NCBI GenBank assembly: GCA_964016885.1
Contig: OZ024743.1
Location: forward strand, 334,056,001 to 334,120,000
Source: Eledone cirrhosa
Taxonomy: Eukaryota
Direction of reading: 5' to 3'
Length of the DNA stretch: 64,000 nucleotides
Numbering within the stretch: position 1 is the stretch's first letter; every line of letters begins with the position of its first letter. Of this stretch, positions 2,032-45,080 are shown in pieces. A program made the translations under genes and the position numbers. The notes below the pieces were generated by a model. It searched no databases and was not told where the DNA came from. It saw nothing but the letters and a program-made list of their open reading frames with translations.

Positions 2032-2239
2032 TATATATATATATATATATATATATATATATATATATATATATATATATATATATATATATATATATAT
2101 ATATACATGGAAAGTTATATTTAAATTGTTGGGTTAACAACGAGTAAATATTTATAACTGATATAAAAGCACTCAACAAGTATTTGGAGTATATTTATGA
2201 TATTAAATAAATGGAAACTATATTTATAAAACCATATTT

Positions 2240-2303
2240 ATTTCGTTATATATATTTCAGGGATATCATATTAACAATATGTTATGCCTTCTTCAGACAA
2301 AAT
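2240..2303 (-). ncRNA. Minimal type I hammerhead ribozyme in pLTR
   Basis: Reverse complement reads ATTTTGT-CTGAAGA-stem II-GAAA-TATATA-T-A-ACGAAAT; palindromic stem III. Confidence 0.8.
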
Positions 2304-3651
2304 ACAATATAAACAGTCTTATAAATAAATAAATAGATACGACATACCTTTCAATCACCTTGCATTTGGGAGGTTGATTTGGCAGTAAAAAATATTGTGG
2401 ACAGTTGTAAAAAGAAAGAGATAAAGAGAGAAAGAAAGAGAAACGAAGAAAAAGAAGAAATGCATGTGACTAAATAGAGAGATATAGAAAGATAGATAAA
2501 GAGAAGAACTTCATGTAAAGAAACAGAGAGAAATATATATAGAGAGAGGAAAAAAGAAAGAGATAGATAGAGATAGATAGAGAAACTAGGAACTTGAGTA
2601 TCGGTTGATACATTTATTTATTTATTTATTTATTTATTTAGCTCTAGTATTAATGTAAAGAGAGATGTATGTAGTTAAGAGAGAAAATAGCCGTTATATA
2701 GAGAGAAAAAAAAAGAAAAAAAAAAAGAAAGAGAAAATGAAAAAGAGAAAATGAAACATAACCAGACATAAACGATGCAGAATTTAAAACCGCTATGTTT
2801 TATCCCGTAGAAAATATTAGTTCGTATAAAACAGGCATTATAATGTAAATACCAGTATTCATGAATGAGACATGTATCTATAATGTGTGAAAAGTAATGA
2901 TCTTATGTCTAGTTTTTAAAAATTCATATGTTTATATCATAATTATAAACAAACTCCCAATTCACACGAAAACATTCTCATTGTGCTATAAAAATTCAAG
3001 TATACATATATGTGTGTATATATACACATATATATAGAGTCTATATTAATTTTAACAATACTATTCTTGTCTTTATTCTACATGATTGTCGATCAAGCAG
3101 AAATAGAGAACAGATTTCAATATATTAATAAAAATAAAAATAAAAATAAAAATAAAAATAAAAATAAAAATAAAAATAAAAATATCGGAGACAAGAAAAT
3201 AAATAAATAAACAGAAAACTAAAACATTTAATATTAAAAATAAAAAATATTACAAAATATTAAAAAATATTAAAAAATATTAAAAAATATTAAAAAATAA
3301 TATAAATAAAACACAGAGATCAGCCTTTCAAAGTTAATTGACAATATATTGCCAAGATCATCATAAGCATCAGAGTCGAAACAGATAAAACAAAAATTGT
3401 TTACCAAATCCTGTCTAGCAGAAATCATTCCAAAAGTTTAGGATACCCATTTGGTCTACATATGTTCTTATATTTAATATAGAAGTTTATCTAGTTTAAA
3501 ATTTAATTCGATATATTTGGAGCATCAGCTTTTAGGGTAGTTTAATTATTCATGAAGAATGTTTTAATAAAAAGAATGTTTTAATAAAAAGAAGAAATCG
3601 AAAGATTTATCGGCTAGTTTCATAAATAATTACAAATCAAATCAAACATAA

Positions 3652-5866
3652 CTACATTTTAAATTTAAATTTATATTTAAACGTTGAGTTCAATCTATGT
3701 CTGCAGCAACTGAATAAATTTGTCCGTAGATTAAGGGAATTTTTAGATTTTAGTATAAAGAATATCTCCTCCGCACAGAGGTCACATGTCTCAGAGGATG
3801 AATTAAAAGGAATCCCCCTTGAAACTATATTCCAAGTCGTCGAATATCTAACGTTATCATGCCTAAGTTGCCAGAGTACGCCTGATAGTGCTGTTGAAGA
3901 TTTTTTGGATGGATCTGTGAAAGAATTCTTGTGGTTGTTATAGCGAAGTTTAAATTCTGTCGATGTAGAACCAACGTAGTTAAAAGAATTAACGTCCGTT
4001 TTAACATTACAGTTGTATATTATATTTTTAACTAAGCAGTTGTTATTTAACGGACATTTAGATCTATCTCTACAGTTACATTTGTTAACTTGGATATTAT
4101 TTATGCTATTATCGCTAGGTTTTAAGTTCCTGTTATTTATTCTATTAATATTTTGCGCTAAAGTTTTGGTGGATGAGTAGGTTAGTTTTATAGTATGTCT
4201 ATTGAAAATTGAGTGATACCTATGTGTTCTAGGGAAGCGATTATCGAGAGCTTTAAAAAATAGTTTAGCAATGTGGGTTTTAATGTTTAGTGAGAAAGGG
4301 GGGGGCAAACCATATTATATTCCTAGTTCTATTTCTTTTATGGCTTTTGGAATTATTGTAATGCTTTCTATTATAGTTGTTAAGGTTGTGGCCATAATTA
4401 AAATAGTTGTTATTTTGTTTAATTTGTTTATCATTATCTATGTACATAATTTTATCACTATATCCTGCTCTAGCTAACGCTTCATTGTAATAATGGGCTT
4501 TTTCGTCGAAAATCTTTTTATTAGATGAGATTCTAGAGATACGTGATTGAACAGAGTTTACTATAGTATTTTTAACAGATTTGGGGTGGTTAGAGTTAAA
4601 GCTGACATAGTTTAAGTTTTCATTCAACTTGTGAAATGGATAGTGAAGACATGTGTTGAGATTTAATGTTATATCTAGGAAGTTGACTATTCTATGGTTA
4701 TTCTCAATTTCTATTTTTAGATTAAAGTGATTAAAAAATTGTGTAATTTGTTTTCTTTTTCTATTTAGTTCAGAGTTATTATTATCAATAAGTAAAAGCA
4801 TGTCATCTTTATATAAACCTCCGGTAGTACCAGGTATTTTCCTATGCAGCGAATTGATTAAAAATAAGCCCACAAGGTCAGTTACCTGAGCTGAGTCGGA
4901 TGATCCCATAGTAATGTCAAAATTGTTATCTCTATCTGCTCGGGTCCATAGTTGGTCATTAAATTCTATCAATGTTTTCCTAGCCGATAATATAATGTGC
5001 ATTTCATTGCTAGTTAGGTCTGTATGTTTGAATGCGTAATTTAGTGCCTTATTTAGTAGATTAGGGGTAATGGAAGAATAATAGTTAGCAATATCAAGTT
5101 GAATAAACTTATTATTATTGTTATATTTAATTTGCTTAAACCACTCAACAACCTCACCAGTTCCCTTCCACAAGCTCAGGTTAGGTAAACAACTCAAGTT
5201 TTTAATTTGCTGTATCACCCTGTCAAGAATGTTTTTGCTTAGTTTACCCAGGTCCGATTTTGATGGTGCAATCAATCTGACTGGCAAGTCATTCTCGAAA
5301 TTTCTCTTATGATCTTTCATATTGATCTTCGGTTTCCTGGGCACGAAAGGTTGTGTTCTGTTCTCGATTTCCAACTCGTGCATTATACAAGATGCCTCAA
5401 CATTCATTTTCTCTAGCTCGGCCTTATCTGCTACCTTGTACTTTTTCCTCAGTTCTTTTAGTATGAGGCCGTTATACATGTCTTTCTGCACTCCATAGAG
5501 GTTGTTGGTCTTGTCAGATTTTACCAAGATCTTCTCAGTTTTCTCCAAGTTCTCAATATTATCCCTAATGCCTTTCAGATATTCCTGGCCTTTGAAGTTT
5601 CTCTTAAATTTGACTCCTTGTATGATAGAAATTATATCGTTTTCAAAGTCAGATAAAAGTTTGTTGGGGGGTGGATTTCTTTTGGATTTGAAAACTTTGT
5701 TTAAGTCCGAGACATTTTCATTTATATTAGATTTATCAAAGTGGAATGCTCGCCACCTGATTCTCCTTATAAAAGAGTCAGATTTATCTATTAATTGTTT
5801 TATAAAGTCTTTGTTTCTAGGTAGAGGTATGTCTTTTAAAGAGGAAGTAATCTTAAAGAATTCCAT
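3652..5866 (-). pseudogene. Penelope (Naiad-type) RT-GIY-YIG polyprotein, one frameshift
   Basis: ORFs 4280-5866 (KSDKTNNLY, IQLDIANYY, ITMGSSDSAQ, GLYKDD) and 3652-4308 (CNC..CP..C, IIY..YVG, CDLC, CRH) join across a homopolymer run near 4300. Confidence 0.9.
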
Positions 5867-42790: not shown

Positions 42791-43349
42791 ATGCCCACAC
42801 GGAAACGTTCAAGACTTACCCCCAAAAAAGGTACAGCTACTGCTTTGAGACAACGAATTAGGCGTTCTCAGGTATGAGTTCATTCACAATTGATTAATCC
42901 TTTATGCAATATTCTCCCTTAATGTTAGCAAGTACTGCGTTTATCCTAACTGTCACCACTTTTAAGCAACTACAACATTCTAATCGTAGTTATATTAAAT
43001 TTATTGTCTTACCTTGATTCCCTTTTGTTCATGTTAGACTTTTCTCATTTACTATTGACACTGCCATTGGCTTAGCTAACCAGTAGAATTAATTAATTTT
43101 CTCTAGGAAACACCTGCTAAGCGCGAATCTCGACTAGCTGATAGACGTCTTTCCCGGCTGGTTGAGTCACCAACATCACGTACGACAAGGCTTGCTGATA
43201 TTCGCCTCCGTCGCCAACAAGCGCTGACGGAGGAATCACCAACATCCCGTCAGACGAGGCTTGAGGCTGTGGCAAAGGGCAATAACCCTAGATACAATTT
43301 TGATCAACTTTTTTTCACCTATAGCAAATTTACCGGGACAGGTTTTTAG
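42791..43349 (+). CDS. Putative two-exon 107-aa Helitron-derived basic protein with STPR-like repeats (exons 42791-42871, 43107-43349)
   Basis: MPTRKRSRL..RRSQ, donor GTATGA, branch CTAAC, acceptor TTTTCTCTAG, then in frame ETPAKRESRLAD..ESPTSRTTRLAD..ESPTSRQTRLEA. Confidence 0.55.
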
Positions 43350-44807
43350 CTACTCAAATCTACTTCAAAGATCACGCATTGATGTAAAAAATCAATAAAA
43401 CTGAAGCGGGGCTCGACTTTGCGCAAAAAAACAAGGCAAAGTTACACATGGGAAAACTTTTTACAGGAACGTCGTATATTCTTGAATACTGTCACAAAAG
43501 ACTCGCCATTATGCCGCGGTTAAGATAAAGGCCCTTTTAATTCTTCTTCTGCACATGTGAGCGCAAAAATTGTAAAAAAAAAGAACCCTGAAAGTAATCG
43601 ACATTCTCACCCTGCTTTAAATTAACTGAACATTCAATATCAAGCGATTTTGACTTCCGTCAGTCGTGCAGAGAACAATTTCAACGATACACTGTGTAAC
43701 TACAATTAATAAATTACACACCTGTGTCTACTAACCTATTTTTTTTCATTGAAGTTCGAAGTTTTGAACCTGTGATGCGCGGGAAGTAACTTTCACACAT
43801 TCTAACAGACCAAAGGTCGACTTACACCCGGGCAACGCCGGGTACTTCTGCTAGTGTATATATATATGTATATATGTATTTATATACATATACGTATATA
43901 TATATGTATATGTATATATGTATATATATATATGTATACATATATATATATATGTATATATATATGTATATATATATATATATGTATATATATGTATATA
44001 TGTACATATATATATGTATATATGTATATATATATATATATATATATGTATATGTATATATATATATGTATATATATATATGTATATATATATATGTATA
44101 TATATATATGTATATATATATATGTATATGTATATATATATATATGTATATATATATACGTATATATATATATATATATATATATGTATATATATATACA
44201 TATATATGTATATATGTATATATATATATATGTATATATGTATATATATATATATATATATATATATATATATATATATATATATATATATATATATACA
44301 TATATACAACTTGAACTATGTGTTTTTTATGTAAAATGCAAAATCAACTTCCTTCGTAACTCATAATAGAAATATAAACAACTCATAATTGTAAATTATT
44401 TCTATTTCTATAATACTTATACAAGCGCAATTATTAATTTATATAGATATTTATACACTTATAACCTATTGTAATGTAATAAGATAAAATTTACTTATAA
44501 CCACAATTCTTCATATAATCTAATCGACTATATATACAATATTATAACTCATAATATAGCTAAATAAATTTAAATTCTGGAATCATATTCCACCATTCCC
44601 GCAAATTGTTAATTCCTTTTAAATTAACGTAAATACAAGCTCTTCTTTCTTTTTTTCTTCTTCCTACTCATACATACATATATTCTAATTATTTAAATTC
44701 TGCATAGCGTCTAAAATAACGTTTTTGTCACCCTTATAGCTCAACCTCATTTGCATACTCATCTTAATAATTTGAAATATCTGACTTTTCTTCTCTTTTC
44801 CATTCAC

Positions 44808-45080
44808 TATCCAAGAAAAACTTGAACCGTTAAGGTATCTTTTTCTTGGTTATGTCAAAATTTATAAAACAAATTTTGTATTTTATCTGATGAAAGCGTA
44901 CCAAAGTTTTGGTACCCTTGAAACATATATAATAGAATAAATATGGTTTTATAAATATAGTTTCCATTTATTAAATATCATTGAATATTATACTCCAGAA
45001 AAAGCTGTCGAGTGCTCTGAATCAGTTATAAACATTTATATTTGTTGAATTACCAACAAATTGAATATCCCTTTTGCTTA
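44808..45080 (+). mobile_element. Solo pLTR with canonical HHR (44880-44938), same family as 7008-7461
   Basis: Aligns to ~7187-7460; ATTTTAT-CTGATGA-..-GAAA-CATATA-T-A-ATAGAAT. Confidence 0.85.

Follow-up and report, generated by a model that had tools for sequence, protein, structure and literature searches.

In a stretch of 64,000 nt from Eledone cirrhosa (GCA_964016885.1, contig OZ024743.1, 334,056,001 to 334,120,000), referred to below as the window, Penelope-like elements (PLEs) of the Hydra clade carry two tandem hairpins, A and B, just ahead of which inserted copies end, and each hairpin is probably a binding site for the reverse transcriptase (RT)-endonuclease (EN) of the element. 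PLEs are the closest relatives of telomerase, and excerpts of the PLE literature describe their choice of internal starts, their one-sided tails and their inverted ends as unresolved.

Three families of the window, F1, F2 and F3, encode proteins with RWR (RWK-type, in the N-terminal region), DKT in place of DKG and a CxCx5C linker, followed by CxxC and CxH in the C-terminal EN, and their copies sit in (TA)n. The protein features are those by which the Hydra clade is defined in the sections of Craig et al. consulted (PMC8557442). GxKF is found in F1 only, and GxKF/Y is not conserved in the Hydra-clade definition. Judged by protein motifs and (TA)n insertion, all three families are Hydra-clade PLEs. 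Pfam searches gave no match for any of seven element proteins (7/7), and the fold of a relative has TERT (3du5) as its top structural match. The elements, open reading frames (ORFs) and hairpins of the window are as follows.

358..522, no single strand: short head-to-head F2 insertion whose minus arm stops ahead of hairpin B and whose plus arm reaches its end at the site of hairpin A
2169..2190, minus: hairpin A within the tail of an F1 3' end; (TA)n begins 63 nt downstream, at the B site
2256..2296, minus: F1 hammerhead core CUGAAGA...GAAA, 106 nt upstream of hairpin A
3652..5866, minus: F1 Hydra-clade RT-EN ORF in two frames (4280-5890 and 3652-4314) with RWR, DKT, CxCx5C, CxxC and CxH
5887..5906, minus: F1 hairpin B, 20 nt ahead of the ATG
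5976..5997, minus: F1 hairpin A, 91 nt ahead of hairpin B; no hammerhead core upstream
6637..6672, minus: hairpin A of another family; core ~160 nt upstream, (TA)n 59 nt downstream, B copy not seen
7026..7049, minus: hairpin A carried by an inverted pair on its minus arm, which ends ~16-20 nt past A, an exception to the rule
7373..7396, plus: hairpin A in the plus, tail-bearing arm of the pair with 7026-7049; hammerhead core at 7264
11617..11652, minus: degenerate hairpin A with RC replaced by UA (ends GAGCTA), downstream of a hammerhead-like core near 11740
22867..22887, minus: hairpin A; the core of the hammerhead, at 22953, lies 66 nt upstream and (TA)n 45 nt downstream
27478..31008, minus: partial-tandem insertion of F2, lacking an inverted arm; its 3' end stops 2 nt short of the hairpin A site
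28480-30608, minus: F2 ORF, ATG at 30608
30629..30646, minus: F2 hairpin B with UUCG loop, 20 nt ahead of the ATG
30689..30735, minus: F2 degenerate hairpin A (long inner stem, GAGCCC), absent from the list of an earlier note on this DNA
30783..30807, minus: F2 degenerate hammerhead-like core CAGAAGA...UGAAA, read by eye
31130..31610, no single strand: separate inverted insertion; minus arm with hairpin A (31181-31222) and tail; hammerhead cores at 31327 (minus) and 31507 (plus)
Within 31130..31610, plus: plus arm of this insertion, stopping ~4 nt short of the A site
35102 (of 35102..41018), minus: minus-arm end of an F3 inverted insertion, 5 nt before hairpin A
40944..40969, plus: F3 hairpin A; family without hammerhead core
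41018 (of 35102..41018), plus: plus-arm end of the F3 inverted insertion, 3 nt before the hairpin B site
44992..45015, plus: hairpin A, lying in the tail of a copy resembling F1; its hammerhead core is at 44887 and (TA)n starts 63 nt beyond the hairpin

Eleven of these hairpins had been listed in the earlier note as a motif conserved downstream of the ribozyme, and each of the 11 is present where it was reported. The list had overlooked the inverted twin at 7026-7049 (minus), and the copy at 31181 is part of a separate inverted insertion rather than of the F2 element with the ORF at 28839-30620. A hammerhead core is missing upstream of the copies at 40944 and 5976. A second copy about 20 nt upstream of the start codon had also been claimed, and both B hairpins, of F1 and F2, do finish 20 nt ahead of their ATG.

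Structure and conservation of the hairpin pair

In element sense, the hairpin consists of RCUC paired with GAGY, a 2-nt UH bulge on the 3' side and an inner stem-loop of variable length, followed by an unpaired, conserved RCUY. Two such hairpins lie in tandem between the hammerhead and the start codon, in the order hammerhead, A, B, AUG, spaced 55-94 nt overall and 77-94 nt in the own-genome families. Pairing was evaluated in 59 non-redundant hairpins that had been selected by their outer words only, with no rule imposed on bulge or inner pairs. The bulge is UU, UC or UA in 56 of the 59, and with a bulge of 2 nt the first inner pair is formed in 58 (C-G in 41, U-A in 17), compared to 2, 1 and 6 of 59 for alternative bulge lengths of 0, 1 and 3 nt. 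For inner pairs 1-3, none of 10,000 shuffles reaches the observed pairing, and among 69 hairpins the outer pair is G-C in 58 and A-U in 6. A covariance model was built from 17 hairpins of equal length, as MAFFT could not align unequal ones, and in the alignment fitted to this model 95% of the cells are paired, with a covariation score of 0.24 vs. 0.10. As the earlier note had supposed, CTC and GAG can close a stem: the RCUC-GAGY pairing is backed by compensatory base pairs. Rfam gave no match at gathering score, either in a scan of the window or in two focused scans.

The motif is enriched in the window and in random own-genome DNA. ACTC-N6-36-THGAGYRC has 11 matches in the window vs. 1.39 expected, a number reached in 0/100 shuffles; they include an overlapping duplicate (40927) and a probable chance match within an ORF (25198). 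On its own, the GCTC form does not reach significance there (2 matches vs. 0.86 expected, with 20/100 shuffles reaching 2). Random own-genome DNA, sampled as 140 stretches of 10 kb (1.4 Mb), contains 113 motif matches vs. 17-34 across 10 shuffles, and extrapolation from this excess of ~90 matches per 1.4 Mb gives, very roughly, 190,000 motif copies in the E. cirrhosa genome.

Conservation was analyzed in 79 metagenome loci holding unrelated marine elements, all retrieved by ORF alignment alone. Among the 60 elements with at least 100 nt available upstream of the ORF, 54 carry the motif there and only two have it on the opposite strand, and it is also present in the 3' region of 36 of the 54 elements in which this region is long enough. 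Two copies are found in 41 references, 55-83 nt apart from start to start, with the second copy (B) finishing 13-49 nt ahead of the start codon. None of 123 covariance-model matches falls within ORF-matching sequence, which makes up 63% of the total. By eye, the hairpin could also be recognised in Hydra consensi published from coral and sea cucumber, with two copies ahead of the ATG in Hydra-1_Ajap; in Hydra-1_Amil, Hydra-1_Obim and Hydra-1_Crog it is weaker or degenerate. Six 9-mers gave four matches in the small Hydra consensus file and three elsewhere in the 584,000-character Craig supplement. Cross-phylum conservation, covariation and exclusion from coding sequence thus support a second cis-acting, structured element of Penelope termini, as the earlier note had proposed.

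The same note had assigned the element to Penelope termini; among those tested, it was found only in Hydra-clade elements. In one non-Hydra PLE family (25 loci), the twin-hairpin motif is absent downstream of the hammerhead, and the seven covariance-model matches in its loci are nested Hydra copies. The hairpins were therefore rejected as a feature of all PLE clades on the basis of this family. The non-Hydra family itself (window 12012-13800, plus, and L201-L225, L340) has a CxxxxCxxC linker, open frames of up to ~1,200 aa and a hammerhead. Each of its two termini, which are separated by ~60 nt, is followed by a short and unrelated hairpin. The possession of two termini seems to be common to PLEs.

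The hammerhead core is present in F1 and most metagenome elements, degenerate in F2 and absent in F3, whose 3.57-kb unit has no CTGANGA...GAAA core on either strand. F3 is a young, very abundant family with a 3' untranslated region of more than 1 kb and has kept both hairpins (window 35102-41018; L320-L339). The distance from hammerhead to hairpin varies from 41 to 100 nt in 35 metagenome elements and from 66 to 160 nt in the window. Owing to this variable spacing and to the retention of the hairpins in core-less F3, the hairpin was ruled out as a part of the hammerhead ribozyme. In the position check suggested by the earlier note, the motif proved to be fixed to two 3' termini but not to the hammerhead. 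Own-genome enrichment anchored on the hammerhead was replaced by tests anchored on ORF and terminus, as the hammerhead descriptor missed the window ribozymes (3/89 candidates had a downstream motif).

Several further observations concern these families. The hammerhead-like core of F2 carries CAGA for CUGA, and the full 709-aa ORF is retained in many F2 copies. Two F1 copies (L014, L015) begin exactly at the predicted hammerhead cleavage site; cleaved RNA could have been their template, a reading confounded by the TA-rich stem III. Many short inverted F3 copies turn around ~55-70 nt upstream of hairpin A, at a point adjoining a GC-rich hairpin cluster without Rfam match. A fourth Hydra-like ORF lies in two frames at window 23755-25979 (plus); its 3' end meets (TA)n at ~26132 and has no hammerhead core or hairpin in view.

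Ends of inserted copies

We mapped termini in the 1.4 Mb of random own-genome DNA plus the window against four own-genome references, counting alignments that end at a microsatellite; the F2 reference was taken from the window, and F1b and F5 were left out as chimeric or with hairpin A misassigned. Of 157 microsatellite-bounded ends, 144 fall within -10..+1 of the base of hairpin A or B. Only 16 of 179 TAT/ATA sites lie inside these two end windows, indicating that AT-richness alone does not explain the ends. At base level, the last element letters are 0-5 nt ahead of the hairpin (0-6 nt overall) and end in TA letters. In other species, 18 of 23 rows were counted (three cross-family hammerhead-only matches and two non-terminal upstream matches were dropped); 12 of the 18 true ends are at -5..0 and 14 at -5..+6, the two at +6 being probably alignment overshoot. 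Ends thus lie just 5' of A or B, so that hairpin B is not copied into the terminal unit and A is copied only if the end is at B. The copies noted near (TA)n are hairpin A inside the "tail". If ends are set at the hairpins, the one-sided tail is best read as hairpin A plus the spacer.

The functions offered in the earlier note were RT binding, priming and a translation signal, and the first two fit this terminus map. The third belongs to a reading in which the hairpins are translational operators or packaging signals bound by the protein, and the clustering of ends near them reflects no more than the annealing of adjacent AU-rich stretches to (TA)n. The position of B shortly before the AUG in the 41 references speaks for such a role, but the scarcity of TAT/ATA sites in the windows that hold most ends, and a B-to-AUG distance that reaches ~70 nt in F3, make it highly improbable as an account of the termini. 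An operator or packaging role and a start-site role are not mutually exclusive.

The two ends of inverted insertions are coupled. Both arms could be classed in 31 of 44 head-to-head pairs, and all 31 combine one end at A with one at B (p about 1e-9). This pairing bears on the possibility that the hairpins direct RNA 3'-end formation, by self-cleavage or a host nuclease acting just 5' of each, so that end-primed target-primed reverse transcription copies two RNA species. The near-constant short distance of the ends from the hairpin and the abundance of F3 without a hammerhead core would suit this possibility, but independent use of two RNAs predicts about half A/A or B/B pairs, of which none was seen among the 31. 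The motif is also very small and without Rfam match, and PAc (anole, Poseidon) starts internally on intact RNA according to the parts of its description consulted (PMC11167929). We therefore consider RNA 3'-end formation quite improbable.

In line with the coupling, all 12 long F3 insertions with both ends resolved are A/B; of the 20 long insertions in total, four ran past the stretch and four were without a clear inverted arm. Within one insertion, the arms differ at 0-4 positions in up to 500 nt, and in 4/12 each arm clearly resembles its partner more than it does any other insertion, consistent with a single template. Of the 12 long arms, seven end at A and five at B (family F3 only), and in six cases the A-ending arm is longer by more than a full unit. 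These lengths are difficult to reconcile with a single cDNA that is primed at B and folds back, its second-strand synthesis stalling at the base of A, with A as a mere stop and B as the sole start. Folding back would account for A/B ends, identical arms and the palindromic junctions of short copies, and self-priming has been proposed for Penelope inversions (PMC3846280, in the excerpt at hand). However, no A/A pair was found, the A-ending arm is the longer one in seven of the 12 resolved long insertions, and a direct insertion can end at A (window 27478), so that we give this reading very little weight. At the junction of one inverted F3 insertion (L332:1750-2253), we observed three 224-nt tandem repeats that contain hairpin A but not B, suggesting repeated template jumps.

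Elsewhere in the window are two broken L1/Tx1-like long interspersed nuclear element (LINE) copies, ~83-95% alike (16258-21025 and 59959-63309, both plus), and broken Rep/helicase fragments on the minus strand (46129-50028), which we take to be Helitron-like from their motifs.

A putative internal start signal for reverse transcription

The structure of the hairpin, the twin arrangement, the terminus map, the strict A/B pairing and the variants common to both arms were observed directly. With a probability of roughly two in three, we interpret each hairpin, on sequence grounds, as a putative RNA binding site for the RT-EN protein that would fix an internal start of reverse transcription just 5' of itself. 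In such a scheme, the element protein would cut (TA)n on both strands, and two RT molecules, as a dimer, would occupy hairpins A and B on a single transcript that is uncleaved and longer than one unit. The hairpin-bound protein would place the RT active site on the short UA stretch just 5' of the hairpin, where each RT would use one target 3' end, paired to the 2-3 nt of this UA stretch just before its hairpin. The two cDNAs would run for variable lengths and then be joined, giving a head-to-head insertion in which solely the B-primed arm carries the tail (A plus spacer). Direct insertions, with their end at A or at B, would arise if one of the two primings failed or yielded only a very short product.

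PAc resembles this scheme in several respects: its tail is bounded by two neighbouring internal starts, it requires RNA located 3' of the start, it extends both target strands and it is predicted to form a dimer; it also uses uncleaved RNA, and ribozyme cleavage is not needed (PMC11167929, parts consulted). It differs in belonging to another clade, and in the sections of Frangieh et al. 2024 consulted its binding motif, an AC-rich stem-loop, is hypothesised but undefined and lies within the ORF, with no twin hairpin reported.

An alternative in which the hairpins act in single-stranded DNA has to be weighed against these data. Here, a tandem cDNA intermediate would be cut by the GIY-YIG endonuclease immediately 5' of A at one side and of B at the other, and resolution rather than priming would determine the ends. 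In Craig et al., the tail is attributed to the EN resolving the intermediate (PMC8557442, sections consulted), and, according to the consulted part of PMC11167929, recognition by the Drosophila EN depended on the tail region; moreover, base pairing leaves the folding strand undecided, and GAGYRCTY is near-palindromic. On the other hand, the tail of PAc has its ends where RT was measured to start on RNA in vitro (PMC11167929, same parts), the ends observed here stop in TA letters able to pair with a (TA)n primer, and A/B pairs as short as 75-200 nt could hardly accommodate a tandem intermediate containing B. Resolution at DNA hairpins thus appears unlikely.

A number of observations weigh against hairpin-fixed starts. 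Among the inverted pairs, 13 of 44 could not be classed, and 13 of the 157 microsatellite-bounded ends fall elsewhere, while the minus arm at 7026 ends 16-20 nt past hairpin A. The two ends are not always coupled: an inverted arm is missing from L322 and L334, which end at B, and from window 27478-31008, which ends at A. F2 is abundant despite its degenerate hairpin A, and the non-Hydra family makes its two termini without this motif. The outer A-U/G-C change splits mainly own-genome from metagenome sequences and may therefore reflect few independent events. Pairing does not tell the folding strand, G-U vs. A-C being 8:8 and sense and antisense energies equal; UUCG loops, three on the sense and none on the antisense strand among 60 hairpins, are too few to weigh. 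Finally, the hairpins are only weakly stable in isolation (mean ~ -5.7 kcal/mol), and in only 30/69 does the minimum-energy prediction agree with the model.

Full-text literature searches returned no description of a hairpin marking both PLE ends; Repbase or Dfam entries or paper supplements could mention the motif. RNA structures recognised by the element's own RT are represented by the 3' stem-loops of stringent LINEs (UnaL2, ZfL2) and the 3' untranslated region structure of R2, which lie 5' of the start and are copied, and L1 twin priming, in which the second target end is primed internally at a random site, yields inversions. The Hydra hairpin differs from these in being 3' of the start and duplicated, with both sites fixed. 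In telomerase RNA and hepadnavirus epsilon, a template-flanking element or bulged hairpin sets an internal template register, but no sequence or Rfam match links them to the Hydra hairpin, and neither repeat addition nor protein priming is seen here.

The Hydra clade of Craig et al. 2021 shares with our families the protein motifs, a single ORF, (TA)n insertion and, in most families, the hammerhead, and the hairpins are visible in its consensi. They are not described, however, in the main text as consulted ("stem-loop" has 0 matches), which calls canonical hammerheads universal in Hydra, whereas F3 is without a core (PMC8557442). The PLE "tail" and inverted pseudo-long terminal repeats likewise show extension at one end only of an inverted insertion, but in the sections consulted no cis-signal is named and the tail measures 30-40 bp, compared to 55-94 nt here with both ends mapping to hairpins (PMC3846280, PMC8557442). 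Thus, the one-sided tail is already known, while the hairpin marking both ends, which we did not find described, is a putative new signal of the RT-recognition type.

We are evenly divided on a more far-reaching version, a programmed twin priming in which an RT-EN dimer holds two tandem hairpins of a single transcript, each located 3' of its template start, and simultaneously primes the two ends of a double-strand cut. Tail and inverted pseudo-long terminal repeats would then be its direct footprint, the hammerhead would be dispensable and the ~130-nt twin-hairpin cassette would serve as a portable origin of replication that might by itself mobilise any RNA placed upstream. At base level, one start is predicted per hairpin, lying 0-6 nt 5' of it, with each target strand using one of the two, and as a defined, covarying, cross-phylum RNA signal the pair is directly testable in the existing in vitro PLE assay. 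For the Hydra clade, in which the large young family F3 has spread without a recognisable hammerhead core, the hairpins give a rule for annotating element boundaries, and the pair would explain the long-puzzling one-sided tail of these elements.

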